A stretch of 64,000 nt of DNA from Dysgonomonas sp. (GTDB lineage Bacteria > Bacteroidota > Bacteroidia > Bacteroidales > Dysgonomonadaceae). Of the stretch, positions 1,814 through 29,523 are shown in pieces. How positions within the stretch are numbered: position 1 is the stretch's first letter; every line of letters begins with the position of its first letter. Both the position numbers and the translations under genes were made by a program. The DNA is taken from contig JASGGC010000012.1 of NCBI GenBank assembly GCA_047605185.1, positions 4,630 through 68,629 on the forward strand. Direction: 5' to 3'. The notes below the pieces were generated by a model. It saw only the letters and a list, made by a program, of their open reading frames with translations. It was not told the origin of the DNA and did not search any database.

Positions 1814-1846
1814 TTCTCAATATTTTAATTAAACTTTTATTACTAA

Positions 1847-3418: not shown

Positions 3419-3445
3419 GTTTTATAGATATTATATTTATATGAG

Positions 3446-5441: not shown

Positions 5442-6101
5442 ATGATAAAACTAGTTATTTTCGATTTAGACGGTACTTTGCTAAATACATTAGATGATTT
5501 AGCAGATTCTTGTAATTATATATTGAATAAGTATGGATTTCCCGAACATCCGGTAGAAGCATATCGCTATTTTGTCGGAAACGGGGTTGCCAAACTGGTA
5601 GAACGCGCCTTGCCTGAAGATGTAAGGACTCCCGAATTTATAGAGAAAGTAAGAAAAGATTTTGTTGAATATTACAGTGCCCATGCAGAGGACAAAACAT
5701 GCCCTTATGATGGGATTTTGAAACTGTTGGAGGATATTTCCGCTAAAGATATAAATTTGGCGGTGGCTTCTAATAAATTTATAGCAGGTACAAAAGCTTT
5801 GGTAAAGAAATACTTTGATCATATAGAATTTACTTCAGTTTTAGGGCAGCGCGAAGGAGTTCCTGTAAAACCAAATCCTCAGATTGTATATGATGTAATG
5901 GCCGAATCTGGAATTACCGACAAAAAACATATATTATATATAGGTGACTCCGGAGCAGATATGAAGACTGCTATGAATGCAGGAGTCGAAAGTGTCGGTG
6001 TGCTATGGGGGTTTAGAGATAGAGCCGAATTGAAAGAGAATGGTGCATCTTATTTTGTTGAATCACCAACCGAAATTTTAGATATTATAAGTAAGCTTTG
6101 A
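5442..6101 (+). CDS. HAD-IA family hydrolase (phosphoglycolate/sugar-phosphate phosphatase-like)
   Basis: 219 aa. It has HAD motif I VIFDLDGTLLNT, motif II ASNK, and motif IV YIGDSGADM. Confidence 0.8.
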   Translation: MIKLVIFDLDGTLLNTLDDLADSCNYILNKYGFPEHPVEAYRYFVGNGVAKLVERALPEDVRTPEFIEKVRKDFVEYYSAHAEDKTCPYDGILKLLEDISAKDINLAVASNKFIAGTKALVKKYFDHIEFTSVLGQREGVPVKPNPQIVYDVMAESGITDKKHILYIGDSGADMKTAMNAGVESVGVLWGFRDRAELKENGASYFVESPTEILDIISKL

Positions 6102-9135: not shown

Positions 9136-9142
9136 GAAAGCT

Positions 9143-10360
9143 ATGGAAGCAATAAATAAAAGCAATAATAATTTCGAACAATGTATCAAATGTACAGTAT
9201 GTACAGTATACTGTCCTGTTTTGAAAGTGAATCCGGATTTTCCGGGCCCTAAACACGGAGGTCCCGATGAAGAACGTTTGCGTCTCAAGAATCCATATTT
9301 TTATGATGAAGCATTGAAGCTATGTTTGAATTGCAAACGCTGTGAGGTAGCTTGTCCTTCAAATGTGAAGATTGGAGATATAATACAATCTGCAAGAATC
9401 AAATACAGTAAGAAAAAACCAAAAGTACGTGATTTTATTTTGGCTAATACAGATTTGATGGGTACGTTGACTACGCCATTTGCTCCGATTGTTAATCCAA
9501 TACTAAAATTAAAATTAACAAGATCAGTGTTGGATGGAGTATTAAGTATCGATCATCGCCGGATTTTTCCTAAATATTCACACGGTACATTTGAGGGCTG
9601 GATGAAAAAGCAAGCGGCTAAGCAGAAAACGTTTGCTAAACAAGTTTCTTTCTTTCATGGCTGTTATGTCAATTACAATAATCCACAGTTAGGAAAAGAT
9701 CTTGTTAAAATTTTTAATGCCTTAGGTTATGGAGTACAGTTGCTTCGTAAAGAGAAATGTTGTGGAGTAGCACTTATTTCGAATGGGCTAATCAATCAGG
9801 CGAAGAAACAAGGAACTGTAAATATCGAGTCGATAAGAGAAAGTGTTCTGGAGAAGAATATGCCGGTTGTGGCAACTTCTTCCACTTGTACTTTTACTTT
9901 GCGTGATGAATATCCCCATCTGTTGGGTCTCAATAATTCAGATGTTCGGGATCATATAGAATTAGCAACTCGTTTTATATATCGATTGATGACAACTTCT
10001 GATATAGTACAAAAATTGAAGTTTAAGGATGATAGAATAAAAGTTGCCTACCATGTGCCTTGCCATATGGAAAAATTAGGCTGGTCTTATTATACAGTAG
10101 AATTGTTGAAATTGATTCCTAATATAGACTTGAAAATGTTGAATCCAAATTGTTGTGGTATTGCTGGAACTTATGGATTTAAAAAAGAAAATTATGCGAC
10201 ATCGCAAAGTATAGGTGCACCATTGTTCGATGAAATTGATAATAGTGATATTGATTTTGTTGTTTCAGATTGCGAAACCTGCAAATGGCAGATAGATATG
10301 TCTACTTCCAAAGAATGTGTGCATCCGATATCTATTATAGCTAATGCTTTGGTAGATTGA
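9143..10360 (+). CDS. glpC: Anaerobic glycerol-3-phosphate dehydrogenase subunit C (Fe-S, CCG domains)
   Basis: 405 aa. It has two 4Fe-4S motifs, CIKCTVCTVYCP and CLNCKRCEVACP, and two Cys-rich CCG motifs (EKCCGV, NCCGIAG). Confidence 0.9.
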   Translation: MEAINKSNNNFEQCIKCTVCTVYCPVLKVNPDFPGPKHGGPDEERLRLKNPYFYDEALKLCLNCKRCEVACPSNVKIGDIIQSARIKYSKKKPKVRDFILANTDLMGTLTTPFAPIVNPILKLKLTRSVLDGVLSIDHRRIFPKYSHGTFEGWMKKQAAKQKTFAKQVSFFHGCYVNYNNPQLGKDLVKIFNALGYGVQLLRKEKCCGVALISNGLINQAKKQGTVNIESIRESVLEKNMPVVATSSTCTFTLRDEYPHLLGLNNSDVRDHIELATRFIYRLMTTSDIVQKLKFKDDRIKVAYHVPCHMEKLGWSYYTVELLKLIPNIDLKMLNPNCCGIAGTYGFKKENYATSQSIGAPLFDEIDNSDIDFVVSDCETCKWQIDMSTSKECVHPISIIANALVD

Positions 10361-10805: not shown

Positions 10806-12296
10806 ATGGAAGAAAAATTTATTTTAGCATTCGATGCCGGAACTACAAGCTCCCGAGCAATTGTATTTGACAAGCAGGGTAAGATTCGTTCTATTGCCCA
10901 AAAAGAATTTACTCAATACTTTCCACAAAGTGGTTGGGTTGAACATGATCCTCATGAGATTTGGTCGTCTCAGGCCTCTGTTGCTGCAGAAGCTATTACC
11001 AAGATTGGGATTAATGGAACAAATATTGCCGGAATTGGGATTACCAATCAGCGCGAAACAGTCGTTGTGTGGGATCGGACAACAGGAGAACCCGTTTATA
11101 ATGCTATTGTATGGCAGGATAGACGAACATCAGAATATTGTGACCAATTAAAAAATAATGGCTTAGTACAAACCATTCGTTCCAAGACAGGTCTGGTGAT
11201 AGATGCATATTTTAGTGCAACTAAAGTGAAATGGATCTTGGATAATGTAGAAGGAGCCAGAAAGAAAGCAGAAAAAGGAGAGTTGGCATTTGGTACAATC
11301 GATTCTTGGATAATTTGGCAGTTGACAAGAGGAGAGGTACATGTTACAGATGTTACTAATGCATCGCGTACTATGATGTATAATATTCATACTTTGGAGT
11401 GGGATGACGAACTATTGAAACTGTTCAATATTCCTAAAAGTATGTTACCTAAAGTTTGCTCTTCGAGTGAAATATACGGATATACTAAAACAACGATTTT
11501 TGCGTCGAAAGTGCCAATTGCTGGTATTGCCGGCGATCAACAAGCAGCCTTGTTCGGACAGATGTGTATTAAACCAGGTATGGTGAAAAACACTTATGGA
11601 ACAGGCTGTTTTATTTTGATGAATACAGGTGAAGAGCCGGTTGCTTCTAAAAATAACTTGATCACGACTATTGCATGGCAAGTCGGAGGGAAAACTTCGT
11701 ATGCATTAGAAGGTAGTGTATTTGTTGCCGGAGCCATTGTTCAATGGCTTAGAGACGGACTTAATATAATTAATTCCTCTTCGGAAATCGAAACCCTTGC
11801 ACGTCAGGTACCTGACTGTGGCGATGTCTACTTTGTGCCGGCACTCACCGGTTTAGGCGCTCCATATTGGGATCAATATGCAAGAGGCACATTGGTTGGA
11901 ATATCGAGAGGTACTACTGCCGCACATATTGCTAGAGCAGCACTCGAAGGGATTGCTTATCTTACATCCGATGTAATCAATGCTATGGTGTTGGATGCAG
12001 GTACAGGGTTGAAAGAACTGAGAGTTGATGGTGGTGCTTCTAGGAATGACTTGTTGATGGAGTTTCAATCGAATGTGTTGATGCAGAAGGTTATTCGTCC
12101 TCAAACTTCTGAAACTACAGCCTTAGGCGCAGCTTATCTTGCCGGACTTGCTGTTGGTTATTGGGATAGTCTGGAAGAAATAGAAAAACAATGGCATATT
12201 GATAAGACTTTCGAACCGGATGCAAATATTGATATGCAATTGAATAAACAAAAATGGACAAGTGCGGTTCAGCGATCCCAATCGTGGATAAAATAA
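10806..12296 (+). CDS. glpK: Glycerol kinase
   Basis: 496 aa with near-canonical GlpK motifs: [37 protein letters not shown] and [15 protein letters not shown]. Confidence 0.95.
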
Positions 12297-12410: not shown

Positions 12411-13259
12411 ATGAAAAAAAATAGTATTTTGATTGCCTTACTCTTTCTTTTAGGAGTCTCGTCGAATGTTTCGGCACAGGTAGAGTTGAAAGAAAAAGAA
12501 ATCCCTGTCGATATCGCTTTAGAGTTAAAGAATGCGCATATATGGAGGGGGCTCGATGTGTCTCACAATTTGCTTATTGATGCAAATGTTAAATTGACTG
12601 ATAAGTCTAAAACAGTAGGAGTCGGAATCTGGGCTGCAACCACTTTTACAAGTGATTTTAGAGAATTCGATTATTATGCTGGTTTCTATAAAGGAGGTTT
12701 CTCTTTTGAAGTTTGGGATATATTTAATTTTTCAGATAAAAATCAATTCGATCCGGTCACAAATACAGGATATAATACTCAAAAAGCATTTGACTATAGT
12801 GCCCACGGTACAGGTCATTTTGTAGATGTCCGTTTAGCTCACCGTTTTTCAGATAAATTTCCTCTTTGCCTAAAATGGAATACTGTTGTTTTTGGACGTG
12901 ACCGTGCTCGTATTAGTACTCCAAGCCTATCGGAGCCGGGTGTTTATAATCAAAAGTATTCTAGTAGCCGCTATTCTACATATGTAGAAGCTGAATATCC
13001 GATCCTGAAAGGGAATATTGTAGATGTTAAAGTTGGAGTCGGAGGGGCTTTTGCACTCAAAGAAGCAAAGATTGACGGACAAAAAATAAAAGGTCACTTT
13101 TATGGAGAGTCAGCCGGTATTGTAAATGCATCCTTAACAGTAACTAAACGTTTGCAGTTAGGTGAGCACTATAATTTACCTATTACAGCCACTGCTGTTT
13201 GGAATCCTGAAGCAAGCAAAACATATATGGAAATTGCAATGCAAGTATTGCAGTTCTGA
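12411..13259 (+). CDS. Porin-like outer-membrane beta-barrel protein, function unknown (between glpK and glpF)
   Basis: 282 aa. It has the signal peptide MKKNSILIALLFLLGVSSNVSAQ and a C-terminal ...MQVLQF with terminal Phe, the OMP beta-signal. The HIWRGLDVS...GVGIWAAT...EFDYYAGF pattern recalls TorF/Gcw_chp-type putative porins. Confidence 0.6.
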   Translation: MKKNSILIALLFLLGVSSNVSAQVELKEKEIPVDIALELKNAHIWRGLDVSHNLLIDANVKLTDKSKTVGVGIWAATTFTSDFREFDYYAGFYKGGFSFEVWDIFNFSDKNQFDPVTNTGYNTQKAFDYSAHGTGHFVDVRLAHRFSDKFPLCLKWNTVVFGRDRARISTPSLSEPGVYNQKYSSSRYSTYVEAEYPILKGNIVDVKVGVGGAFALKEAKIDGQKIKGHFYGESAGIVNASLTVTKRLQLGEHYNLPITATAVWNPEASKTYMEIAMQVLQF

Positions 13260-13582: not shown

Positions 13583-14359
13583 ATGACAATTACAGCATCT
13601 CAATTTTTAGGCGAAATGTTAGGGTCTTTTACCCTTATCGCTTTAGGGGTAGGAATCAGTATGAACCTAACCCTGAATAAAAGTTTTAATATGGGTAATA
13701 CAGCTGCGATCAGCGGGCCTCTTTCGTGGGGATTTGCAGTAGCAATGGCTATCATTGTAGCAATGCCTTTCAATAGTGGAGCACATTTTAATCCAGCGGT
13801 TACAATTGGATTTGCAGTAGCAGGAGTATTTCCTTGGGCATTAGTTTTACCATACATTGGAGCACAGGCTATCGGATCCTTTCTTGGTGCTGTCGTAAGC
13901 TGGTTCGTATATAAATGCCAGTTTGACGAAACTGCAAACGACCCTTATAAAACGCGTATTGTGTTTTGTACAAATGCAGCAGTACGTAATCCGCTTCGCA
14001 ATTTTGCGAGCGAGGCTCTGGCAACATTCTTTCTCATATTTATTTCGTTAGTCATGGTTGCTCCTCATATTATTTCGATTGAAGGAACAAAAGTGCCAAT
14101 TGGTCTTGGAGCTAACGGAGCTATAATAAACGGTTTCTTGATTTTTGCTATTGGTATGGCATATGGAGGGGTTACAGGATGGTCATTAAATCCTACTCGT
14201 GATTTGATGCCAAGATTAGCCCATCAGCTATTACCAATAAAAGGAAAAGAAGGTAGTGATTGGGGATATGGAATAAGAAATGGGGCTATTGCACCGGTTG
14301 TGGGTGCTGTTATAGCTGCCGGTTTATATCTGTTGATCAAAGATTATCTTGTTTCGTAG
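13583..14359 (+). CDS. glpF: MIP-family glycerol/polyol uptake facilitator
   Basis: 258 aa. The first NPA box is HFNPAVT. The second box reads LNPTRD, that is NPT instead of NPA. It has six hydrophobic segments and sits in a glp context. Confidence 0.9.
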   Translation: MTITASQFLGEMLGSFTLIALGVGISMNLTLNKSFNMGNTAAISGPLSWGFAVAMAIIVAMPFNSGAHFNPAVTIGFAVAGVFPWALVLPYIGAQAIGSFLGAVVSWFVYKCQFDETANDPYKTRIVFCTNAAVRNPLRNFASEALATFFLIFISLVMVAPHIISIEGTKVPIGLGANGAIINGFLIFAIGMAYGGVTGWSLNPTRDLMPRLAHQLLPIKGKEGSDWGYGIRNGAIAPVVGAVIAAGLYLLIKDYLVS

Positions 14360-14441: not shown

Positions 14442-15092
14442 ATGAAATTTTTTATTGATACAGCAAATTTAGAGCACATTAAGAAAGCTCAGGATTTAGG
14501 CGTTTTAGATGGAGTTACAACTAACCCTTCTATAATGGCCAAAGAAGGTGTTACCGGAAAAGAGAATATAAAAGCTCATTACAAAGCTATTTGTAACATC
14601 GTTGACGGTGATGTTAGTGCAGAGGTATTATCTACAGACTATGATAATATGCTCCGTGAAGCGGACGAATTGGTAAAGATAGACGAAAAAATAGTAGTTA
14701 AAGTTCCCATGATTGCGGACGGAATTAGAGCTATTAAATATCTGACAGATAATGGTATAAAAACCAATTGTACACTAGTGTTCTCTGCAGGTCAGGCTCT
14801 GTTGGCTGCCAAAGCGGGTGCAACTTATGTTTCTCCTTTCTTAGGTCGTTTGGATGATATATCTACAGACGGGTTACATCTTATAGAAGAAATCAGACTT
14901 ATCTATGATAACTATGGATTCGAAACTCAAATATTAGCAGCTTCAATCCGAAATTCGATGCATATAATCAATTGTGCAAAATTGGGTGCAGATGTGATCA
15001 CATCGCCATTAGATGCTATTATGGCACTATTGAAACACCCTTTGACCGATTCGGGATTAGCGAAATTCATTGAAGATTCAAAAAAATTATAA
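14442..15092 (+). CDS. tal: Transaldolase, short type 3B (Tal/FSA family)
   Basis: 216 aa. Motifs are [22 protein letters not shown] (Schiff-base Lys) and [10 protein letters not shown]. The Phe in SPF (E. coli FSA has Tyr in APYVNRID, as I recall) favours transaldolase over fructose-6-phosphate aldolase. Confidence 0.8.
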
Positions 15093-15109: not shown

Positions 15110-16495
15110 ATGCCTAAACAAGAAGTAGAAAAAGCATTAAGCCTTGCAGATGAAACAAAGTTTCTTAAGATAGGAGAAAATATACTGAGCGAAATTCCGG
15201 CAATATTTAAAGCTCAATTTCCAGGAAAAAAAGCTATTGTTATCGCAGATAAAAATACATATCGTGTAGCAGGCGAAGCCGTTCATAAATATTTATCCGA
15301 CGCAGGTTTAGAATATGGACAACCATTGATAATGGATGACCCTGATCTATATGCAGATTATCGTTTTGTTCAAAAAATAGTAACATATCTGAAACCATTT
15401 GACGCTATTGCTGTGGCAGTAGGTGGAGGTGTGATAAATGATATAACCAAACGTGCTAACTATGAGTTAGAAAGACCATATATGTGTGTTGCTACAGCAG
15501 CCTCTATGGATGGTTATTCAGCTTATGGAGCATCTATAACTAAAGAAGGAGCAAAAATGACAATGACATGTCCTGCACCACAGGCTATTGTTGCCGATTT
15601 GGCTGTTATTTGTAAAGCACCTCCCATCACAACAGCATCAGGCTATGCTGATTTGTATGCAAAAGTCCCAGCCGGAGCTGATTGGATATTGGCTGATGCC
15701 TTAGGTGTAGAACCTTTGGACGACCAGTCATGGCATATAGTACAAGATGGATTGGAAAGCGCATTGAAAGACCCCGCTGGAGCTAAAGCCGGAGAGGTTT
15801 CTGCCATAGAACCTTTGATTGAAGGATTGATGCTTGGAGGCTTTGCCATACAGTCTCTGAGATCGAGCCGTCCCGCATCAGGTGCAGAACACCAGTTCAG
15901 TCACCTATGGGATATGGAACACCATACTTTCAAAGGTGAGATGGCAAAAAAATTCGGATTGTATAAAGATCAGGATGAACAAGCTCCATCGCATGGGTTT
16001 AAAGTAGGTATCGGTCTACTTACTATATCGGCTTTATATGAACGTATATTTGAAACTCCTTTAGATCAATTGGATGTGAAAAAGGCTGTAAGCCAATGGA
16101 AACCATTGGAAGAACAAGTTGCAGAAGTAAACGAAATGTTCAAAGGAACAGGACTTGAAGAATTTGCAGCAAAACAAATTACAGAAAAATATATTTCTAA
16201 AGAAGATTTAGAAAAACAATTGACAACATTAAAAAATAACTGGTCTAAAATAAGAGAGGATTTGAAAAAACAAATTATCCCTTATGCAGAAACTAAAAAG
16301 CGGTTGAAATTAGTTGGTGCACCTGTAGAATGTGAAGAAATTGGTATTACAAGAGACCGATTAAGAAAAAGTTTTTACAGAGCACAGAAGATAAGAAATC
16401 GTTTTACAGTTTTGGACTTGGCTGTACGTACTGGATATCTGGACCAATGGGTAGATGAACTGTTCGGTGAAAATGGCGTTTTGCAACATTCATAA
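15110..16495 (+). CDS. sn-Glycerol-1-phosphate dehydrogenase family protein (AraM/EgsA-like; DHQS/Fe-ADH superfamily)
   Basis: 461 aa. It has the nucleotide motif GGGVINDITK and a metal/substrate motif SGAEHQFSHLWDMEHH...PSHGFKVG. The C-terminal segment is IRNRFTVLDLA. The true substrate is not inferable from sequence. Confidence 0.65.
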   Translation: MPKQEVEKALSLADETKFLKIGENILSEIPAIFKAQFPGKKAIVIADKNTYRVAGEAVHKYLSDAGLEYGQPLIMDDPDLYADYRFVQKIVTYLKPFDAIAVAVGGGVINDITKRANYELERPYMCVATAASMDGYSAYGASITKEGAKMTMTCPAPQAIVADLAVICKAPPITTASGYADLYAKVPAGADWILADALGVEPLDDQSWHIVQDGLESALKDPAGAKAGEVSAIEPLIEGLMLGGFAIQSLRSSRPASGAEHQFSHLWDMEHHTFKGEMAKKFGLYKDQDEQAPSHGFKVGIGLLTISALYERIFETPLDQLDVKKAVSQWKPLEEQVAEVNEMFKGTGLEEFAAKQITEKYISKEDLEKQLTTLKNNWSKIREDLKKQIIPYAETKKRLKLVGAPVECEEIGITRDRLRKSFYRAQKIRNRFTVLDLAVRTGYLDQWVDELFGENGVLQHS

Positions 16496-16509
16496 TTATA
16501 ATTGAGAAC

Positions 16510-16555
16510 TAGGTCACATCTTAAGAGTATTCTTGTACTGTACTCGATGTGGCCT
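16510..16555 (+). other. Intergenic stem-loop (possible weak terminator or processing site)
   Basis: taggtcacatc pairs with gatgtggccta (11 bp with one G-U), with an inner gagta/tactc pairing. It is followed only by ATTTTG. Confidence 0.3.
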
Positions 16556-16625
16556 ATTTTGACTCCTTTGCTCACTTTCCGGTAATTGTTAACTGTTTTT
16601 AGATCAATTAATATATTTATATAGA

Positions 16626-17486
16626 ATGAATTATATAACCGATATACAAAATACCCCACTCCCTATTTTAGACAAAGTAAAAAAAATAAAGCATGTTGCA
16701 TTAGATATGGATGGAACCATATATAATGGTAAAACGCTTTTTCCCTATACAATTGATTTTTTGAAAAAACTCAAGAGCCTAGGGATTACTTATTCTTTTC
16801 TTACCAATAATCCGTCAAGAAGTATTTCTGATTATCTGAAAAAATTGGAAGGATTGGGTATAGAAGCCACCGAAGAAGAAATGTATACTTCGGCACAGGC
16901 CACAATAGATTATTTGAAATATCATCATCCCGAATGGAAAAGATTATTCCTGTTGGGAACACCAAGTATGATAGAGCAATTCGAAAAAAATGGATTTATT
17001 TCGACAGCAGACTCTCCCGACGATGAACCCGATGCTCTGATTGTAGCTTTCGATATGAGTCTTACATACTCTCGTCTTTGCCGTGCGGCATGGTGGGCTA
17101 AACAGCAAAAACCATACTATGCTACCAATCCCGATTGGGTTTGCCCTACCGATCAGCCTGTTGTTTTAGTCGATTGTGCTTCAATTTACACCTGTATCGA
17201 AGCTGCAACTGGTCGCAAGCCGGATAAAGTATTAGGGAAACCGCAACCGGAAATGCTGGATGGTATTTTAGAATCAAAAAATCTAAAACCGGATCAGGTA
17301 GCTATGGTTGGTGATCGCATATATACCGATATGATGATGGCATATAATGCAAAAGCATTTGGTGTTCTGGTGCTTTCAGGAGAAGCAACACTCGAGGATG
17401 CCGAAAAAGCAGATCCCGAATTAGATATAATTCTGCCAAGTATCGACGAATTGGGTCAATTGATAGAATATACAAAAAAGGGTTAA
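16626..17486 (+). CDS. HAD-IIA (NagD/AraL-type) sugar-phosphate phosphatase
   Basis: 286 aa with motifs ALDMDGTIY, FLTNNPS and MVGDRIYTDM, characteristic of the NagD subfamily. Confidence 0.8.
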   Translation: MNYITDIQNTPLPILDKVKKIKHVALDMDGTIYNGKTLFPYTIDFLKKLKSLGITYSFLTNNPSRSISDYLKKLEGLGIEATEEEMYTSAQATIDYLKYHHPEWKRLFLLGTPSMIEQFEKNGFISTADSPDDEPDALIVAFDMSLTYSRLCRAAWWAKQQKPYYATNPDWVCPTDQPVVLVDCASIYTCIEAATGRKPDKVLGKPQPEMLDGILESKNLKPDQVAMVGDRIYTDMMMAYNAKAFGVLVLSGEATLEDAEKADPELDIILPSIDELGQLIEYTKKG

Positions 17487-17487
17487 G

Positions 17488-18189
17488 ATGGATAAATATA
17501 ATTATATAAAAGAAGAAGCCTTCAGAGGAAACTTATTGTTACCTCAACTAGGATTAGTTATATTTACTTGGGGAAATGTAAGTGTTGCAGATCACAATTT
17601 AGGAGTTTTTGCAATCAAACCGAGTGGCATCCCCTACGATAAACTTAAAAAAGACGACATCGTTGTTGTCGATTTCGAAGGAAAAGTAGTCGAAGGTAAA
17701 ATGCGCCCGTCATCCGATACCCCTACTCATGCTGTGTTATATTCGCACCTGAAAGACATTAATTCCGTAGTCCACACCCACAGTACCTATGCTACTGCAT
17801 GGGCACAGACTCAGAAAGATTTGCCTATTTTAGGGACAACACATGCTGATCATACTAAATATGATATTCCATGTACTTTGCCAATGAGTGATGAAATGAT
17901 TGAAGATGATTATGAATATCAGACCGGATTTCAAATCTTAAATGAGTTATCAGACCGTAACATCAGACCTGAGGAATTGAATATGATACTGATTGGTAAC
18001 CATGGTCCTTTTACTTGGGGTAAGAATGCGGAAGACGCAGTTTACAATAGTGCTGTATTAGAGAATATAGCGCAAATGGCATTCATTTCATTACAGATAA
18101 ACCCCCAAGCACCTCGTCTAAAAGAAGCCCTTATACAAAAACACTATGAACGTAAGCATGGCAAGAATGCTTATTACGGACAGAAGTAA
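17488..18189 (+). CDS. araD: L-ribulose-5-phosphate 4-epimerase (class II aldolase/adducin family)
   Basis: 233 aa. It aligns by eye along its whole length with E. coli AraD (FTWGNVS, IKPSG, PSSDTPTH, VVHTHS, GTTHADH). It starts 1 nt after the HAD-IIA stop codon (TAA 17484-17486), which suggests coupling. Confidence 0.85.
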   Translation: MDKYNYIKEEAFRGNLLLPQLGLVIFTWGNVSVADHNLGVFAIKPSGIPYDKLKKDDIVVVDFEGKVVEGKMRPSSDTPTHAVLYSHLKDINSVVHTHSTYATAWAQTQKDLPILGTTHADHTKYDIPCTLPMSDEMIEDDYEYQTGFQILNELSDRNIRPEELNMILIGNHGPFTWGKNAEDAVYNSAVLENIAQMAFISLQINPQAPRLKEALIQKHYERKHGKNAYYGQK

Positions 18190-18220
18190 CAAACATTAAT
18201 ATACATCAAAAACTAATACC

Positions 18221-19885
18221 ATGAGTGATAATTTAGTAATAGGAATCGACTATGGATCCGATTCGTGTAGAGCATTGCTTGTTGATGCACAATCTGGAAA
18301 AGAATTAGCACTAGCTGTTAAAGAATATCCAAGATGGAAAAGAGGATTGTATTGCGATCCTATCCATTTTCAATTCAGACACCATCCTTTAGATTATGTA
18401 GAAGGACTAGAGTATGTAATCAATGATGTTATCAGACAAGTACCCGGTTCGAAAGATAAAATAAAAGCTTTGGCTATCGATGTGACTTGTTCTACACCGG
18501 TTGCTGTAAACAAAGAAGGTACACCATTAGCTTTATTATCCGAATTTTCAGAAAATCCTAACGCTATGTTTGTCTTATGGAAAGACCATACAGGTGTTCA
18601 GGACTGTAAAGATATAAATGAGTTTTCTCAAAAATGGGAAATCGACTACACCAAATATGCAGGTGGAGGAGGCAATTATTCAGCCGAACACTTTTGGACA
18701 AAAGTCCTTCATGTATTGCGGACTGATGAAAAAGTAAAAGTCGCTACCCATTCATTTGTCGAAGCTTGTGACTGGTTGCCGGCAATGCTTACAGGAGAGA
18801 CTAAGCCGGAAGAATTGAAAAGAAATATGTGTACGGCAGGTTTCAAAGTTTTTTGGAATAAGGAGTGGGGTGGTTATCCACCAAATGAATTTTTCAAAGC
18901 CTTAGATCCCGTATTGGATGGAATAGTTGATACTTTTTCGAAAGATGTATATACTTGCGATAAGCCGATCGGAACATTAGACTGTGAATGGGCAGAACGT
19001 TTAGGACTTAACGAAAATACAATTGTGACAGTCGGAAATGTAGATGCACACGCCGGTGGAATAGGTGCCGGAGTTAAAAATAAATCTATCGTACAGATAA
19101 TCGGAACATCTACATGTAACATTATTGTAGGTTCGAAAGAAAATAATCGGGCAATACCGGGTATCTCAGGTCAGGCAGACGATTCCGTCATTCCGGGTAT
19201 GATTGGATATGAAGCAGGTCAGGCTGCCTATGGCGATTTATATGCATGGTTCAAAAAAATACTGATGTGGCCTTTAAACAATATTCTGGCCAATACAACA
19301 GTTGTGGATGAAGCCACTAAAAAAGAACTGATTGACGAAGTATATGCTGAGATGATTCCGGCATTGGCACGTCAGGCAAAAGCAATTCCGGCAACAGATA
19401 GCTATATGCTGGCTACGGATTGGATTAATGGCCGTAGAACTCCCAATGTTGACTATGAGCTAAAAGGAACTGTAACCGGTTTAACCCTTTCTAGTACAGC
19501 ACCTTTGATTTATAAATCTTTGGTCGAGGCTACAGCTTTTGGTTCACGTGCTATTGTTGAACAATTTATCAATAACGGAATCGAAATAGAAGAAATTATT
19601 GGGGTAGGAGGCATAACACAGAAATCTCCATATGTAATGCAGGTTTTATCAGATGTTTTAGGTAAACCTATCAAGGTAATAGAAACTCGCGAAGCATGTG
19701 CACTAGGTGTTGCTATGTGTGCCGCTGTAGCTGCCGGTATTCATCCGAGTATCGAGAAAGCTCAGGATGCAATGTGCATGAAGGTTTCGAAATATTATCA
19801 ACCGGATCCTGTTGCTCACGAGCATTATAATACTGAATATCAGAAGTATCATAAGCTAGAGCAAATAAAACATCTGACAGAATAA
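18221..19885 (+). CDS. araB: Ribulokinase-family FGGY kinase (AraB-like, paralogue 1)
   Basis: 554 aa. It shows strong colinear similarity to E. coli AraB (IGIDYGSDSCRAL, YPRWK, FRHHPLDY, NPNAMFVLWKDHT, DWINGRRTPN, EACALG). Confidence 0.8.
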   Translation: MSDNLVIGIDYGSDSCRALLVDAQSGKELALAVKEYPRWKRGLYCDPIHFQFRHHPLDYVEGLEYVINDVIRQVPGSKDKIKALAIDVTCSTPVAVNKEGTPLALLSEFSENPNAMFVLWKDHTGVQDCKDINEFSQKWEIDYTKYAGGGGNYSAEHFWTKVLHVLRTDEKVKVATHSFVEACDWLPAMLTGETKPEELKRNMCTAGFKVFWNKEWGGYPPNEFFKALDPVLDGIVDTFSKDVYTCDKPIGTLDCEWAERLGLNENTIVTVGNVDAHAGGIGAGVKNKSIVQIIGTSTCNIIVGSKENNRAIPGISGQADDSVIPGMIGYEAGQAAYGDLYAWFKKILMWPLNNILANTTVVDEATKKELIDEVYAEMIPALARQAKAIPATDSYMLATDWINGRRTPNVDYELKGTVTGLTLSSTAPLIYKSLVEATAFGSRAIVEQFINNGIEIEEIIGVGGITQKSPYVMQVLSDVLGKPIKVIETREACALGVAMCAAVAAGIHPSIEKAQDAMCMKVSKYYQPDPVAHEHYNTEYQKYHKLEQIKHLTE

Positions 19886-19947
19886 AATCATAAATCTAAA
19901 CCTATATACCATATATTAAACATTTTCAAACCTTAAAGCGTATTATC

Positions 19948-21615
19948 ATGGAATTTTCTAATAATTTAGTAATCGGGCTCGATTATGGTACAGATTCGGC
20001 AAGAGCTATACTGATCGATGCAGAAACGGGCAAAGAATTAGCTTTATCAATAAAAGAATATCCTAGATGGAAACAAGGGTTATATTGTGATCCTGTAAAA
20101 TCTCAATTCAGACAACATCCATTGGACTATTTGGAAGCAATGGAGTATGTTATAAACGATGTTTTAAATACAGTTGCAGGGGCAAAAGAAAAAGTGAGAG
20201 CAATAAGTGTCGATATGACTGGGTCTACCCCTATTGCTGTCGATGCAGAAGGAACTCCTTTGGCTATGAAGCTCGAATTTTCAGAATATCCGAATGCAAT
20301 GTTCGTATTGTGGAAAGACCATACAGGGCAGAAAGAGTGCGATTATATTAATGAGTTTTCAAAAAAATGGAAAATTGATTATACACGCTCTAAATGGTGT
20401 GGAAACTATTCGACAGAGCACTTTTGGACAAAAGCTCTTCATATATTTAAAGACCCTAAAATAAAAGCAGCTGCTCATTCTTTTGTAGAATCGAGTGATT
20501 GGCTTCCCGGAGAATTGACAGGCAATACAAAACCTGAAAAACTCAAAAGGGGAATGGGTATAGCTTCCTCACGTGTGATGTGGAACAAAGAATGGGGAGG
20601 TTATCCGCCTAACGAATATTTTAAAGCTCTCGATCCGGCTTTGGATGGTCTAGTCAATACTTTCGATCCTCAGGCTTATACCTGCGATCAGTCCGTGGGG
20701 ACTCTCACTTGTGAGTGGGCAGAGCGTTTAGGGCTTAGTGATAAAGTTCTTGTTGCTGTCGGTAATTTAGACTGTCATGCAGGTGCTATTGGTGCCGGGG
20801 TAAAAGATCGTGCTATGGTCGAAATTATAGGAACATCTACATGTGCCATAACAGTAGCTCCGAAAGCGCTTGATGGAGGAAAAGTTCCGGGTGTTCCACA
20901 ACAGGCAGACGATATGATATTGCCGGGTATGATTGGTTATGAAGGTGGACAGTCTTGCTTCGGAGACTTATACGCATGGTTCAAAAAAATGTTGATGTGG
21001 CCGTTAAACAATATTTTGGCCAATACAACAGTTGTAGATGAGGATATAAAAAAGAAACTGATAGATGAGGTTTATGCCGAAATGATACCGACTTTAGCTC
21101 GTCAGGCGAAAATTGTACCGGCCGAAGATAGTTCTGTTATTTCTACAGACTGGGTGAATGGGCGACGTTCACCAAATGTTGACTACGACCTGAAAGGAAC
21201 TATTGCAGGGCTGACACTATCCAGTACAGCTCCTCTGGTTTACAAATCGTTAGTCGAAGCTACTGCCTTCGGGGCAAAAGCCTTTATCGAACAGTTCCAA
21301 AATAATGGAGGGCATCTCGAAGAGGTTATTGCAGTTGGAGGTATATCCCAAAAATCGCCATACGTAATGCAAGTACTTGCTGATGTAATTGGTATGCCGA
21401 TCAATGTAATTGCTACCCGCGAGGCTTGTGCATTAGGTGTTGCCATGTGTGCAGCAGTTGTGGCTGGAGTATATCCGAGTTTGGAAGAAGCTCAACAAAG
21501 TATGAAAATGAAAATATCGACTGTGTATAAACCAAGTGATAGAAATCATGATCATTATTGTAAAGAATACAGAAAATATTTGAATCTGGAAGAAGTCAAG
21601 AAATTTATTGAATAA
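19948..21615 (+). CDS. araB: Ribulokinase-family FGGY kinase (AraB-like, paralogue 2)
   Basis: 555 aa. It is colinear with 18221..19885 and about 70% identical by eye, with the same AraB motifs. Confidence 0.8.
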   Translation: MEFSNNLVIGLDYGTDSARAILIDAETGKELALSIKEYPRWKQGLYCDPVKSQFRQHPLDYLEAMEYVINDVLNTVAGAKEKVRAISVDMTGSTPIAVDAEGTPLAMKLEFSEYPNAMFVLWKDHTGQKECDYINEFSKKWKIDYTRSKWCGNYSTEHFWTKALHIFKDPKIKAAAHSFVESSDWLPGELTGNTKPEKLKRGMGIASSRVMWNKEWGGYPPNEYFKALDPALDGLVNTFDPQAYTCDQSVGTLTCEWAERLGLSDKVLVAVGNLDCHAGAIGAGVKDRAMVEIIGTSTCAITVAPKALDGGKVPGVPQQADDMILPGMIGYEGGQSCFGDLYAWFKKMLMWPLNNILANTTVVDEDIKKKLIDEVYAEMIPTLARQAKIVPAEDSSVISTDWVNGRRSPNVDYDLKGTIAGLTLSSTAPLVYKSLVEATAFGAKAFIEQFQNNGGHLEEVIAVGGISQKSPYVMQVLADVIGMPINVIATREACALGVAMCAAVVAGVYPSLEEAQQSMKMKISTVYKPSDRNHDHYCKEYRKYLNLEEVKKFIE

Positions 21616-21708: not shown

Positions 21709-23739
21709 ATGGAAAAAGATAGAGTTATTGAGCATGCGGCTGATAATATTAGAATTTTATCCGCTGCAATGGTTGAAAAAGCAAAATCGGGACATCCTGG
21801 TGGAGCTATGGGTGGAGCTGATTTTATGAATGTTTTATATTCAGAATTTTTGGTTTATGACCCACAAAATCCTCAATGGGAACAGAGAGACCGTTTCTTT
21901 TTGGATGCAGGTCACATGTCGCCGATGTTATATTCTACGCTGGCTCTTGCCGGAAAATATACGGTAGAAGATTTGATGCAATTCCGCCAATGGGAAAGTG
22001 TTACTCCCGGGCATCCCGAATTAGATTTAAAGCATGGAATTGAAAATACCTCAGGTCCATTAGGACAAGGGCACGCTTATGGAGTAGGAGCAGCGATTGC
22101 AGCCAAATTCTTAAAATCCCGTATGGGTGATATAATGAGTCAGACGATTTATGCATATATTACCGACGGTGGTATACAGGAAGAAGTTTCGCAAGGAGCA
22201 GGGCGTATTGCCGGGCACTTAGGACTAGATAACCTGATAATGTTTTACGACTCTAATGGCATTCAACTTTCTACCGAAGTTAAAGAAGTGAATGAAGAAG
22301 ATGTTGTAGCCAAATATAAAGCTTGGGGTTGGGAAGTATTCGAAATAGACGGAAATAATACGAAACAAATTCGTGAAGCATTGACCAAAGCTAAAGCTGT
22401 GCAGGGAAAACCTACATTAATTATTGGAAATACGATAATGGGCAAAGGTGCAGTCGATGCTAACGGCGGCTCTTTCGAGAATAAGACTTCTACTCATGGA
22501 CAGCCGTTAAGTGCAGCCGGAGCCAGCTTCGAAAAAACTGTTGAAAACTTAGGAGGAGACCCACAGAAACCGTTTACTATCTTTGCCGAGGTGCAGGAGT
22601 TATACTCGAAACGTGCAGAGGAGTTGAAACATATAGTTGCAGAAAGAGAAAAAGAAAAAGCAGCTTGGGCAAAACAAAATCCGGACAAAGCAACCAAATT
22701 GAAAAAATGGTTTGCTAATGAAACTCCTGATATAGCTTGGGATAAAATACAGCAAAAAGCAAATGATGCCACTCGTAATGCTTCTGCCACAGTATTAGGG
22801 GCTCTGGCACAACAAGTGGAGAATATGATCGTGTCTTCTGCCGATTTATCTAATTCGGACAAAACGGATGGATTCTTAAAACATACACATAGTTTCAAGA
22901 AAGGAGACTTTTCAGGAGCATTCCTTCAAGCAGGTGTTGCTGAATTTACAATGGCATGTCTTTGTGTTGGTATGAGCCTTCATGGAGGGATCATTCCGGC
23001 TTGTGCAACATTCTTTGTCTTTTCTGACTATATGAAACCTGTTATCCGTGTCGCAGCATTGATGGAAAAACAAGTTGTATTTGTTTGGACACATGATGCA
23101 TTTAGAGTAGGTGAAGATGGGCCTACACACGAACCAGTGGAGCAGGAAGCACAAATCCGATTGATGGAGAAATTAAAAAACCATCATGGCAAAAATTCAA
23201 TGTTGGTATTACGTCCGGCAGATGTTCAGGAAACGACAGTTGCTTGGAAACTAGCTATCGAAAACAAAAACTCTCCGACTGGTTTAATTCTTTCCCGTCA
23301 GAACATAACAGACTTGCCATCGGCAGGCAATAGATATCAAGATGCTTTGCAAGCAGGCAAAGGCGCATATGTGGTGCAAGAAGAGAAAGATTATGATGTG
23401 ATTCTGGTAGCAACAGGCTCTGAAGTTTCAACATTGATTGAAGGTGCTGAATTGTTGAAGAAGGATAATATAAAGGCTCGCATCGTATCTGTACCGTCCG
23501 AAGGCTTATTCCGTTCTCAGCCGAAAGAATATCAAGAATCTGTTTTACCTAAAGGCAAAAAGAAATTTGGTCTTACAGCAGGTCTTCCTGTTAATCTGTT
23601 AGGATTAGTTGGTGACATTGATGCTATATGGGGCTTGGAATCGTTCGGATATTCTGCTCCATACAAGATTCTTGATGAGAAGTTGGGCTTTACTGCCGAC
23701 AATGTATGCAAACAAGTTAAAAAATATCTGGGGAAATGA
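21709..23739 (+). CDS. tkt: Transketolase
   Basis: 676 aa with motifs GHPGGAMG, the ThDP-binding region YITDGGIQEEVSQGA...FYDSNGIQ, and VWTHDAFRVGEDGPTHEPVEQ. Confidence 0.95.
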   Translation: MEKDRVIEHAADNIRILSAAMVEKAKSGHPGGAMGGADFMNVLYSEFLVYDPQNPQWEQRDRFFLDAGHMSPMLYSTLALAGKYTVEDLMQFRQWESVTPGHPELDLKHGIENTSGPLGQGHAYGVGAAIAAKFLKSRMGDIMSQTIYAYITDGGIQEEVSQGAGRIAGHLGLDNLIMFYDSNGIQLSTEVKEVNEEDVVAKYKAWGWEVFEIDGNNTKQIREALTKAKAVQGKPTLIIGNTIMGKGAVDANGGSFENKTSTHGQPLSAAGASFEKTVENLGGDPQKPFTIFAEVQELYSKRAEELKHIVAEREKEKAAWAKQNPDKATKLKKWFANETPDIAWDKIQQKANDATRNASATVLGALAQQVENMIVSSADLSNSDKTDGFLKHTHSFKKGDFSGAFLQAGVAEFTMACLCVGMSLHGGIIPACATFFVFSDYMKPVIRVAALMEKQVVFVWTHDAFRVGEDGPTHEPVEQEAQIRLMEKLKNHHGKNSMLVLRPADVQETTVAWKLAIENKNSPTGLILSRQNITDLPSAGNRYQDALQAGKGAYVVQEEKDYDVILVATGSEVSTLIEGAELLKKDNIKARIVSVPSEGLFRSQPKEYQESVLPKGKKKFGLTAGLPVNLLGLVGDIDAIWGLESFGYSAPYKILDEKLGFTADNVCKQVKKYLGK

Positions 23740-24203
23740 ATAAGCCAGATAAAGATTTAGTTTGTTTGTCAGGCAAGCCAGTAGGTCTTTGTTGTGATCA
23801 TGCCGGGTTCGAATTGAAACAATTTGTGATTAAATTGTTGTCGGACAATGGTATTGTATATGAGGATTTTGGTACATATACGGACGAGAGTTGCGACTAC
23901 GCTGATTATGCACATAAGCTGGCCAATGCTGTGGAGTCGGGTAAATGTTATCCCGGCATTGCAATTTGTGGTTCGGGTAATGGGATTAATATGACCCTCA
24001 ACAAGCATCAACTTATCCGTTCTGCATTGTGTTGGACAGCAGAATTGTCTCGCTTGTCCCGTGCTCATAATAATGCTAATATTCTCACCTTGCCGGCTCG
24101 GTTTATAACAGAGGAAGAGGCATATAAGGCTATAAAAACTTTTTTCGAAACTCCATTTGAAGGTGGAAGACATCAAAAAAGAATTGAAAAGATTCCAGTG
24201 TGA
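23736..24203 (+). CDS. rpiB: Ribose-5-phosphate isomerase B
   Basis: 155 aa with motifs CCDHAGFELK, ICGSGNGINMTLNK, HNNANILTLPARF and GGRHQKRI. Its ATG overlaps the tkt stop (ATGA). Confidence 0.85.
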   Translation: MNKPDKDLVCLSGKPVGLCCDHAGFELKQFVIKLLSDNGIVYEDFGTYTDESCDYADYAHKLANAVESGKCYPGIAICGSGNGINMTLNKHQLIRSALCWTAELSRLSRAHNNANILTLPARFITEEEAYKAIKTFFETPFEGGRHQKRIEKIPV

Positions 24204-24230
24204 TTTTAGAAATAGATAAAGTTTGATTAA

Positions 24231-24270
24231 AAGCAGGTTCCTTTGATGGGGCTTGCTTTTTGTTTTGAAT
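24231..24270 (+). terminator. Rho-independent terminator after rpiB
   Basis: agcaggttcc pairs with ggggcttgct (10 bp including G-U pairs, loop tttgat), followed by TTTTTGTTTT. Confidence 0.65.
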
Positions 24271-24360: not shown

Positions 24361-24822
24361 TTACTTTTTTAGGATTTCTTGCTCATATTCAGCTATTCGG
24401 TTTACCTTAGGTGTAGATCCTCCTCCGGCAAATTCGCTTTCTAACCAGATGTCCAATAGATTTTTAGCTAGTTCCAATCCAATAACACGCTCTCCGAAGC
24501 AAACGATTTGTGCATTGTTGCTTTTTCTTGCTCTTTGTGCCGAAAATGAATCGTGACATACCGCAGCTCGCACACCCGGAACTTTGTTTGCACACATACA
24601 TACGCCAAGTCCTGTTCCACACACAAGGACAGCCCGTTCAAACTCCTTGTTTGCCACAGCTTCGGCAACTTTGAATGCTACATCCGGATATAAAATTACT
24701 TCTCCCGATTCTGCACCGTAATCTGCAACTTCATAACCTTTTTCTTCCAAATGTTTCTTTAAAACTACTTTCATGTTGTAGGCTGCTTCATCACAACCTA
24801 TTGCAATTTTTTTCTTTTCCAT
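24361..24822 (-). CDS. RpiB/LacA/LacB-family sugar-phosphate isomerase (divergent second paralogue)
   Basis: 153 aa with motifs IAIGCDEAAY, LVCGTGLGVCMCANK and SNNAQIVCFGERV. Where rpiB has GGRHQKRI, this protein has GGGSTPKVNRI. Confidence 0.75.
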   Translation of the reverse strand: MEKKKIAIGCDEAAYNMKVVLKKHLEEKGYEVADYGAESGEVILYPDVAFKVAEAVANKEFERAVLVCGTGLGVCMCANKVPGVRAAVCHDSFSAQRARKSNNAQIVCFGERVIGLELAKNLLDIWLESEFAGGGSTPKVNRIAEYEQEILKK

Positions 24823-25101: not shown

Positions 25102-25710
25102 ATGAATACAATAGAAGAGGCGTTAGAGGATATCCGCAAAGGGAAGTTGATAATCGTAGTAGATGATGAAAATAGGGAGAATGAAGGTGACTTTGTTGTG
25201 GCTGCCGAAAGAATAACTCCCGATACAGTTAACTTTATGTTACACCAAGGGCGAGGTATACTTTGTGTATCATTACCGGGCGAACGATGTGAAGAACTTC
25301 AATTGCCGATGATGGGAGAAGATAATACTTCACTGTTGGGTACTCCTTTTACCGTATCTGTCGATTTGATTCCGGGTTGTGCTACAGGAGTTTCCTCTAA
25401 AGAGCGTGCTGCTACAATCTATTCACTAGTAGATCCGGCAACTAAACCTTCAGACTTAGCCCGTCCGGGTCATATATTCCCATTACGAGCTTGCTCCGGA
25501 GGTGTCTTTGACAGAGAGGGACATACCGAAGCTGTAGTCGATTTGACAAGACTTGCCGGACTCAAACCGGGTGGGGCATTAATTGAAATTATGACAGAAG
25601 ATGGGGCTATGGCGCGTTTGCCTCAGTTGCAGGAAATTGCAAATAAATTCGATCTGAAGATTGTTTCAATCGCAGATTTGATAAAATACAGAAAGGCTAA
25701 TAATTTATAA
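25102..25710 (+). CDS. ribB: 3,4-dihydroxy-2-butanone-4-phosphate synthase (stand-alone, no GTP cyclohydrolase II domain)
   Basis: 202 aa. Full-length similarity to E. coli RibB includes [21 protein letters not shown] and EGHTEA. Confidence 0.9.
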
Positions 25711-25785: not shown

Positions 25786-26553
25786 ATGGGAAATATTGCA
25801 CAGCGACATAAGTATATTTTAGAGCAACTCAAAAAGGAAGATTACGTAAAAGTACAAGAACTGAGTAAAATCCTAAATGTATCAGAAGTTACAATCCGAA
25901 AGGATCTGAAATATTTGGAAGAAAAGAAAATGCTTTCCAGAAATCACGGGTCTGCAAGTAATGTTCTTACAATTATGCCCGATAGGCATATCGATGTAAA
26001 AGAAAAGATACAAGTTGATGAAAAATGTAGGATTGCTGCTGCTGCCAGAGATTTGATTGAAGTTAATGATCGGATTATAGTAGCATCCGGAACTACGACT
26101 TTGGCTTTTGCGAATGCTATAAATGAGTTGAATGTTCCTGTCTCGGTAATAACTCCTTCGGTAAAAGTTTCGTTAGCTTTGTGTTATAATCCAAATATTG
26201 AGATAATCCAATTGGGAGGAGTTATCAGAAAAAATGCAGCATCGGTAATAGGCAATGAGGCTGAAAGCATGTTGAAAGGAATATCTTGTAACAAACTATT
26301 TTTTGGAATTGATGGACTGGAATTAGACTATGGTTTGACAACTAGCAGTCTGAGTGAAGCTCATATTCATCAGCAAATGATTAACTGCTCACAGAAAATT
26401 ATTGTGCTGGTCGATTCTTCTAAATTTGGAAAACGTGGATTCTGTAAAATATGTAGTATAAATAAAGTGCATCAGATCATTACAGATTCGAATGCACCTA
26501 CTCATACTGTAAATGCTTTGAGAGAAAGTGGTATCGAAGTAACAATTGTTTAA
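25786..26553 (+). CDS. DeoR/GlpR-family transcriptional regulator
   Basis: 255 aa. It has an N-terminal wHTH (VKVQELSKILNVSEVTIRKDLKYLEE) and a C-terminal DeoR sugar-phosphate sensor domain. Confidence 0.9.
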   Translation: MGNIAQRHKYILEQLKKEDYVKVQELSKILNVSEVTIRKDLKYLEEKKMLSRNHGSASNVLTIMPDRHIDVKEKIQVDEKCRIAAAARDLIEVNDRIIVASGTTTLAFANAINELNVPVSVITPSVKVSLALCYNPNIEIIQLGGVIRKNAASVIGNEAESMLKGISCNKLFFGIDGLELDYGLTTSSLSEAHIHQQMINCSQKIIVLVDSSKFGKRGFCKICSINKVHQIITDSNAPTHTVNALRESGIEVTIV

Positions 26554-27904: not shown

Positions 27905-27939
27905 AATATTCTATATTAAATTATTATTAGTAATTATTT

Positions 27940-29487: not shown

Positions 29488-29523
29488 TGTCTTTTTGTCT
29501 TTATGTTTATTATATCTATGTGA

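Follow-up and report, generated by a model that had tools for sequence, protein, structure and literature searches.

An AraM-like dehydrogenase and a HAD-IIA phosphatase beside araD and two ribulokinase genes, without araA, in a locus of Dysgonomonas that probably serves growth on small sugar alcohols

The araABDLMNPQ-abfA operon of Bacillus subtilis encodes, along with AraB and AraD, the Ni2+-dependent sn-glycerol-1-phosphate (G1P) dehydrogenase AraM (solved structure 9h4x) and the HAD-IIA sugar phosphatase AraL. Why araM lies beside araL in an arabinose operon is unexplained to date; AraL has been proposed to be a safety valve against toxic sugar phosphates. G1P dehydrogenase (G1PDH) is regarded as a hallmark of archaeal lipid synthesis, and the bacterial case is known only from B. 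subtilis AraM. Here we describe a stretch of 64,000 nucleotides from Dysgonomonas sp. (GenBank assembly GCA_047605185.1, contig JASGGC010000012.1, positions 4,630 to 68,629 of the forward strand), which we call the window and number from its first letter. In it an AraM-type dehydrogenase and a HAD-IIA phosphatase are likewise encoded with araB and araD, but araA, an arabinose transporter and a PcrB partner are all missing. We believe that the operon probably serves growth on small sugar alcohols by a route that has not been described.

Other known systems resemble the locus in part. Archaeal EgsA (M. jannaschii 4rgq/4rgv) shares its fold, its Asp/His/His metal site and the motif SRPASGxEH with the window enzyme, which is about 130 residues longer and stands in a catabolic rather than a lipid-biosynthetic setting. 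The window enzyme is also longer than B. subtilis AraM (461 aa, against 395 residues in the 9h4x chain). The Gram-positive pentitol-phosphate pathways (a phosphotransferase system, then a ribitol-5-phosphate, xylitol-5-phosphate or arabitol-phosphate dehydrogenase) and Klebsiella rbt/dal follow the same logic, from polyol to pentulose-5-phosphate to the pentose-phosphate pathway, but they have neither a phosphatase step nor AraD. As far as is known, their pentitol(-phosphate) dehydrogenases belong to the medium-chain (MDR) or short-chain (SDR) dehydrogenase/reductases, not to the Fe-ADH_2/G1PDH family. In the B. thetaiotaomicron arabinose locus, araB, araA and araD lie beside tkt-rpiB, as araB and araD do in the window; compared with the Bacteroides locus, the window lacks araA, the Nudix hydrolase, the symporter and the mutarotase and has the AraM-like and HAD-IIA genes instead. 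Finally, there are cassettes with GlpT, GDPD and GlpD genes in Bacteroidota, Verrucomicrobiota and others, whose dehydrogenase carries the NCBI label sn-glycerol-1-phosphate dehydrogenase. These encode an orthologous dehydrogenase (54-57% identical) and the HAD-IIA phosphatase that accompanies it (62-65%), as well as a DeoR regulator (42-51%; loci L004, L005 and L096). The window has GlpF in place of GlpT, has no GDPD, and adds tal, araD, two araB, tkt and rpiB, and its dehydrogenase falls in a separate, long-branched clade with an insertion.

The string in the window begins with a glpF-type MIP channel gene (13583-14359, +; PF00230, 95 bits) and tal, for a short transaldolase (14442-15092, +; TIGR00875, 284 against a cut-off of 246). 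There follow the 461-aa AraM-like dehydrogenase (15110-16495, +; Pfam Fe-ADH_2, PF13685, 115.5 bits against a cut-off of 28), a HAD-IIA phosphatase of the NagD/AraL type (16626-17486, +; TIGR01460, 129.6 against 100.15) and araD, for L-ribulose-5-phosphate 4-epimerase (17488-18189, +; NF006047, 342.5 against 257). Next come two ribulokinase-family FGGY kinases (18221-19885 and 19948-21615, both +; NF003154, 664 and 603 against 428), the transketolase gene tkt (21709-23739, +) and, as the last gene of the unit, rpiB for an RpiB-type sugar-phosphate isomerase (23736-24203, +). The original prediction had given the string as a G1PDH-family enzyme, a HAD phosphatase, araD, araB and araB, following glpF-tal, and the open reading frames stand at exactly those coordinates; it had overlooked tkt-rpiB at the 3' end, and the unit is longer by two genes.

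The intergenic gaps from tal to rpiB measure -4 to 130 nt: araD begins 1 nt past the HAD-IIA stop codon, and the start of rpiB overlaps the tkt stop by 4 nt. A terminator-like hairpin with a 13-bp stem lies after rpiB (24229-24260) and is the only strong one on the plus strand. Because of these tight gaps and this sole terminator we read glpF to rpiB as one operon. A scan for sigma-70 promoters was uninformative (52 sites, with 60 expected). A gene for a DeoR-family regulator lies at 25786-26553 (+). It is quite possible, if somewhat short of probable, that glpF-tal-dehydrogenase-HAD-IIA-araD-araB-araB-tkt-rpiB forms a single catabolic operon, controlled by DeoR, whose substrate is a small neutral polyol.

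The absence of an isomerase, noted for the string by the original prediction, extends to the genome. We searched the whole Dysgonomonas genome, which is 98.4% complete, for araA (PF02610) and found no match, while the controls matched. AraD scores 243 bits to the E. coli enzyme (1jdi); on the equivalog model TIGR00760 it scores 292, below the cut-off of 389. The segments HTHS, GTTHAD, HGPF and the C-terminal YYGQ are conserved; we take these, with the C-terminal Tyr, to be the zinc-ligand and acid-base residues of E. coli AraD. Because AraD keeps all of these presumed catalytic residues, L-ribulose-5-phosphate is very likely an intermediate of the pathway, and since the genome is without araA it would have to come from a polyol by the operon's own enzymes.

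The same string (DeoR, glpF, tal, dehydrogenase, HAD-IIA, araD, araB, araB, tkt) is found elsewhere only in three Apibacter genomes (Flavobacteriales), and gene by gene the nine members are 63-81% identical to those of the window. None of these three genomes has a match to araA (PF02610) either, again with the controls matched. When 69 family members are placed in a tree, the dehydrogenases of the window and of Apibacter share a long branch as one clade with full support. Only 1 of 24 other Dysgonomonas species has an AraM-like gene, and there the context is different; because of this, and because Apibacter forms a clade with the window, the operon unit was probably transferred as a block. The original prediction had made conservation of the adjacency in relatives a test of its idea, and the full string recurs in these three genomes and the pair alone in several phyla.

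In three separate branches of the tree, namely the window with Apibacter, Maribellus, and D. massiliensis, the AraM-like/HAD pair has ribulokinase genes as immediate neighbors, and parsimony on the tree asks for at least three changes to explain this adjacency. It is mainly on this repeated recruitment that we base the view that pair and kinase act in the same pathway. Where the transporter is GlpF, loci have two or three ribulokinase-type kinases, and the two loci with a GlpT-like importer have one. The higher number fits a need to phosphorylate a polyol that enters unphosphorylated. As a separate observation, one operon of Apibacter muscae (L007:10001-19570) has the AraM-like gene in two paralogous copies, 67% identical, along with three ribulokinase-family kinases; the duplicated dehydrogenase gene comes before the extra ribulokinase-family gene, and an anaerobic C4-dicarboxylate transporter gene adjoins the operon.

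The original prediction had called the 461-aa enzyme AraM-like and a member of the G1PDH family, and this is borne out by both sequence and fold. B. subtilis AraM (9h4x) is its top sequence relative among solved structures (132 bits, E 2e-37, with GldA at 36 bits). For the fold comparison we used an AlphaFold (AF2) model of the dehydrogenase with a predicted local distance difference test score (pLDDT) of 93.8; 9h4x was again the top match (template-modelling (TM) score 0.83 on the target, 23% identity in the fold alignment), and GldA ranked second. On NF002022, the model for archaeal G1PDH, the enzyme reaches 161.2 bits and so falls short of the equivalog cut-off of 413, with profile positions 15-259 of 350 matched; on the GldA model it reaches 43 bits. 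The motifs GGGxxNDxxK, TAASMDGY, D181, SRPASGAEHQFSH and H295 are invariant across 56 relatives and common to AraM and M. jannaschii G1PDH. The metal site (D181, H261/H265 and H295) and the nucleotide motif GGGVINDITK align with both of these enzymes, and Asp/His/His is the described ligand pattern of the G1PDH metal site (PMC6737245). The G1PDH-type motif residues are unchanged in the proteins of both GlpT-type and GlpF-type loci, and this motif conservation suggests that the phosphate pocket is retained.

Compared with AraM, the window enzyme is extended by about 65 residues in the stretch that leads from the metal-ligand region to the C-terminal helices. The insertion that the original prediction had noticed in this protein is a true one of 14 residues (278-291) directly N-terminal of the invariant His295; it is present in 22 of the 56 aligned family members and absent from the remainder. 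Its conserved residues are Gly283, Leu284, Tyr285, Asp289, Glu290 and Gln291. Members of the insertion clade also have Tyr183 in place of the Phe of other members, and three further positions differ as well. An insertion beside His295, together with Tyr183, is compatible with an altered substrate pocket. The closest metagenomic relatives of the dehydrogenase are 69-90% identical and come from metagenome-assembled genomes of Tannerella, Tannerellaceae and Flavobacteriaceae; the metagenome scan returned four loci only, and none was informative for the insertion clade.

The partner enzymes appear intact. The phosphatase has the HAD-IIA catalytic motifs DMDGT (DxDGT), SFLTNN (S/T), GKP (K) and GDRIYTD (GDxxxTD). 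Its best relative in the Protein Data Bank is 1vjr of T. maritima, with 188 bits (97 bits for B. subtilis YutF), and the relatives there include the glycerol-3-phosphate phosphatases 4i9f (Rv1692) and 7po7 (PGP). We liken it to AraL by HAD-IIA family and gene pairing. The tandem kinases are 67% identical to each other and are the only ribulokinase-family genes in the genome; they score 551 and 512 on TIGR01234, both below the cut-off of 583, and the best structural match of the first is the ribulokinase 3qdk (342 bits). The tal product gives 267 bits to the T. maritima and 245 to the T. acidophilum transaldolase, against 115 to E. coli fructose-6-phosphate aldolase (FSA). We ruled out an identity as fructose-6-phosphate aldolase: the protein has Glu and Phe (..SAEV.., ..YVSPFLGR..), as wild-type T. 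acidophilum transaldolase does (3s0c), and not the Gln and Tyr of the FSA-like E-to-Q, F-to-Y variant 4xz9. The genome has no other TAL_FSA gene. The operon tkt is 75% identical to the one in the Apibacter operon, and the genome has a second copy elsewhere.

The channel gene glpF is the first gene of the unit that is conserved with Apibacter, holds the same position in L006-L008, and is the likely entry route for a small neutral polyol. Between glpK and glpF lies a gene for a 282-aa protein (12411-13259, +) that has no Pfam or NCBIfam match and is not in the Apibacter loci. It has an N-terminal signal peptide and a C-terminus ending in Phe (...VLQF), and is a candidate small outer-membrane beta-barrel channel. 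We did not find GlpT in the genome. Because of the neutral-solute channel, the candidate barrel 5' of it and the lack of GlpT, we think that the substrate is a small polyol; with GlpT missing from the genome, it is unlikely that the enzyme is fed by imported G1P here. The DeoR gene clusters with the divergent DeoR of Apibacter and is an orthologue of the DeoR genes placed divergently at other AraM-like loci, so that the same orthologue accompanies GlpT-type and GlpF-type loci. Effectors of DeoR-family regulators are usually phosphate esters.

Relatives of the dehydrogenase (440-475 aa) are encoded at 594 or more loci in species-representative genomes of Bacteroidota, Verrucomicrobiota, Planctomycetota and Lentisphaerota. 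For the best 80 of these loci we took a tblastn census of neighbours within 5 kb of the AraM-like gene. A HAD-IIA phosphatase was found at 50 of the 80, so the AraM/AraL-type pairing pointed out by the original prediction recurs, and more widely than it had supposed. The other neighbours counted were a GlpT-like organophosphate:phosphate antiporter (47/80), a GDPD phosphodiesterase (21/80), GlpD (15/80) and an RbtT/DalT-family polyol transporter (6/80). DeoR or SorC regulators are frequent, and the most frequent order is regulator, GlpD, GDPD, dehydrogenase, GlpT-like, HAD-IIA. PcrB/GGGPS (PF01884) was not found in the Dysgonomonas genome, and none of 50 dehydrogenase-carrying genomes gave a match above the cut-off; in both searches the controls matched. 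Because PcrB is missing from these 50 carriers, a lipid-biosynthetic role is disfavored, and the AraM-like family, which is catabolic in setting, looks unlike a lipid-biosynthetic supplier. G1P is released from lipoteichoic acid, phosphatidylglycerol head groups and archaeal lipids, and the simplest activity of the family is most likely the oxidation of G1P to dihydroxyacetone phosphate (DHAP). The original prediction had allowed that the enzyme might make or consume G1P: consuming it fits the company of GlpT-like, GDPD, GlpD and DeoR/SorC genes, and the lipid-biosynthetic role is contradicted by the lack of PcrB/GGGPS.

Some AraM-like genes lie inside SusC/SusD loci with calcineurin-like and EEP-fold phosphoesterases. 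In L025, L071, L039, L045 and L009, the AraM-like/HAD-IIA pair and SusC/SusD genes are accompanied by MetallophosN/C phosphoesterases, a second calcineurin-like phosphoesterase and an EEP-fold enzyme, together with an FAD oxidoreductase (PF12831) and a GlpT-like antiporter. These have the look of loci for using a polymer joined by phosphodiesters, for example a polyol phosphate of the teichoic-acid type. Two apparent features of high-GC loci (L051, L052, L066, L080, L082 and L085) were discarded as artefacts of long open frames in GC-rich DNA. One was a 505-aa "ORF" antisense to the AraM-like gene; the other was a set of "fusions" of 645-859 aa that joined HAD-IIA to the sequence upstream of it. 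By tblastn, the dehydrogenase, MFS and HAD genes are separate.

For the window, we propose that a polyol, of which ribitol, L-arabitol or another pentitol is the likeliest, would enter by the outer-membrane barrel and GlpF. The AraM-like dehydrogenase, the two ribulokinase-type kinases and the phosphatase are the candidate makers of L-ribulose-5-phosphate and together would replace AraA. AraD would then convert this to D-xylulose-5-phosphate, which Tkt, Tal and RpiB would channel to central metabolism. We see two possible orders of steps. In order (a), a kinase would act first, then the dehydrogenase at the carbon beside the phosphoester, then the phosphatase, an L-ribulokinase and AraD. D-ribitol-5-phosphate shares the local configuration of G1P, and by stereochemical reasoning its oxidation yields L-ribulose-1-phosphate; the phosphatase would free L-ribulose from this, and the second kinase would make L-ribulose-5-phosphate. 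In order (b), a kinase, the dehydrogenase and AraD would suffice, for example with L-arabitol-5-phosphate oxidized at C2 to L-ribulose-5-phosphate. This would require a pocket that takes a phosphate three carbons further off, and the phosphatase would be a safety valve. We favor order (a) because every gene is used with its canonical chemistry and because it fits the pattern of kinase number against transporter. Between them, the two orders may well account for the operon, a reading that we hold tentatively.

The dehydrogenase/phosphatase pair would have been borrowed from the widespread cassette of GDPD, AraM-like, GlpT-like, HAD-IIA, GlpD and DeoR/SorC genes. That cassette probably salvages glycerophosphate-type esters, and the enzyme there most likely oxidizes G1P to DHAP. 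The original prediction had suggested that the window enzyme oxidizes a pentitol or its phosphate to supply AraB and AraD. This fits the gene logic and the repeated recruitment of ribulokinases; the gene identities, the layout of the operon, the lack of araA, PcrB and GlpT and the conservation of the unit and of the pair are observed, and the substrate, the action on a phosphorylated polyol and the order of the steps are things that we infer.

Several points weigh against such a route. The active-site motifs are the same as those of relatives in glycerophosphate loci, which argues for G1P/DHAP as substrate throughout, and the place of the insertion relative to the substrate pocket is read from sequence order only. 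On pentitols, E. coli ribulokinase places the phosphate at the L-configured end, and the product does not have a configuration like that of G1P. Order (a) spends two ATP on each pentitol. Some of the operon's genes may serve housekeeping, tal being the sole transaldolase gene. AraD is above the cut-off in 22 of the 50 dehydrogenase-carrying genomes; many carriers are without it, so the HAD-IIA phosphatase has a role that is independent of AraB and AraD. The carriers without AraD include isolates with the locus GDPD, dehydrogenase, GlpT-like, HAD-IIA, and in such genomes the phosphatase may, by analogy with Rv1692 and PGP, dephosphorylate glycerol phosphates. With AraD in just 22 of 50 carriers, we dropped the idea that the pair has a general L-ribulose role across the family. 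In 101 Rikenellaceae genomes we found 14 AraD loci; at 12 of these a ribulokinase homologue lies no more than about 1.8 kb from AraD, next to it in ten, and no AraM-like gene is present in the flanks that were retrieved.

Other explanations of the locus do without a pentitol phosphate. The enzyme could be a strict catabolic G1P dehydrogenase in a glycerol/glycerophosphate island, with araD-araB-tkt-rpiB as unlinked neighbors and a phosphatase that trims glycerol phosphates. The commonest neighbors in the family (GlpT-like, GDPD and GlpD genes), the invariance of all G1PDH motifs, AraM as the nearest structure and the glycerol-3-phosphate phosphatases among the HAD-IIA relatives all agree with this, as do the genes immediately 5', namely glpA, glpB and glpC (6240-10360, +), glpK (10806-12296, +) and glpF. 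Marine bacteria are also reported to grow on G1P, and their catabolic enzyme is unnamed (PMC12718374). On the other hand, the window has no evident supply of G1P, since the genome is without GlpT and the operon's channel carries neutral solutes; araB and araD would be left without a source of substrate in four araA-less genomes, and the three independent recruitments of ribulokinases beside the pair would go unexplained. We consider this explanation unlikely, though a live alternative. We also think it unlikely that the enzyme is a plain polyol dehydrogenase, GldA-like in function, which would take free ribitol or L-arabitol to L-ribulose for AraB and then AraD, with the phosphatase as a safety valve against toxic pentitol or pentulose phosphates. 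This would be the simplest chemistry to replace AraA, and entry by GlpF, the rank of GldA as second-best fold match and a clade-specific insertion rich in Tyr, Asp, Glu and Gln that adjoins a metal ligand are all in line with it. However, the G1PDH-specific SRPASGxEH is strictly kept and is missing from the aligned part of GldA, the DeoR orthologue is common to the phosphate-ester loci, and the second kinase and the phosphatase would be superfluous, yet both are conserved.

The pair might instead run in the reductive direction as a redox valve, with DHAP reduced to G1P, the HAD-IIA enzyme releasing glycerol, and glycerol leaving by GlpF. The sn-1 isomer would be kept apart from GlpK and GlpABC, which are specific for sn-glycerol-3-phosphate (G3P), and the valve would balance NADH in the fermentation of reduced substrates. 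G1PDHs do reduce DHAP in archaea and B. subtilis (PMC5059525), HAD-IIA enzymes serve as glycerol-phosphate phosphatases, and the gene order glpF-tal-dehydrogenase-phosphatase suits the scheme. But most family members lie beside importers, GDPD and GlpD, which is a catabolic setting, the glycerol would be recaptured by the GlpK encoded upstream, and the kinases would have no part to play; we regard this as very unlikely. The last explanation, a supply of G1P for an archaeal-type ether lipid as by AraM with PcrB in B. subtilis, could appeal to the homology to AraM and to the Bacteroidota GGGPS homologues, some of which use G1P (PMC7852524). It is contradicted by the searches for PF01884 in this genome and the 50 carriers, and we give it almost no credence. 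A polyol route through the pair, the kinases and AraD is the reading that we favor.

The rest of the window holds further genes for related chemistry. On the minus strand, a second unit that looks polyol-related (767-5017) encodes two XylB-like FGGY kinases in tandem, both of 523 aa (1847-3418 and 3446-5017), and after them a divergent GpsA paralogue (767-1813), which scores 181 bits where the cut-off is 257. This unit could pair a kinase with a polyol-phosphate dehydrogenase for the opposite (G3P-like) configuration. The canonical gpsA is on another contig, and the genome also encodes, elsewhere, Rpe and a Dak-type dihydroxyacetone kinase. Just 5' of glpABC is a second phosphatase gene of the island, which is HAD-IA and phosphoglycolate-phosphatase-like (5442-6101, +; 219 aa, 141 bits against a cut-off of 225). 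A second RpiB gene (24361-24822, -) is convergent with the operon rpiB and has its own strong terminator (24323-24285); it scores 158 bits on the D-erythrulose-4-phosphate isomerase model, against a cut-off of 240. A stand-alone ribB for DHBP synthase, which uses ribulose-5-phosphate, lies at 25102-25710 (+). In the region 3' of the DeoR gene (26639-32658, -), a 421-aa protein with a C-terminal OsmC-like domain adjoins a SusD/SusC-like pair. A look-up of sequencing runs places DNA of the window also in several isolates and in metagenomes from wastewater, bioreactors and insect guts.

Overall, the observation in the original prediction is confirmed and its interpretation partly supported. A 2026 paper describes AraM as mainly confined to Bacillus (PMC13400652). 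We find the AraM/AraL-type pair as a conserved two-gene module in at least four phyla, in catabolic company and with PcrB in none of the 50 carrier genomes. A 2025 study that identified G1P transporters states that the recycling of G1P had been unexplored (PMC12718374), and we found no paper on a catabolic bacterial G1P dehydrogenase. The window and Apibacter have a distinct variant of the module with araD, araB, tkt and rpiB, which most likely takes a polyol to L-ribulose-5-phosphate without an isomerase. The window is the cleanest case that ties the module to AraB and AraD in this way, and it makes the identity of the oxidized polyol (phosphate) a testable question.

A more general proposal, which we find distinctly doubtful at present, is that the bacterial AraM-type enzymes are catabolic dehydrogenases for polyol phosphates with the sn-1 (D) configuration beside the phosphoester. 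They would take G1P to DHAP and D-ribitol-5-phosphate to L-ribulose-1-phosphate, the latter to be followed by HAD-IIA, a ribulokinase acting at C5 and AraD. If true, this would be a new pentitol-phosphate route, and it would account for the company that araL and araM keep with araB and araD in B. subtilis. The module is also relevant to the bacterial recycling of sn-glycerol-1-phosphate, the sources of which are lipoteichoic acid, the head groups of phosphatidylglycerol and archaeal lipids.

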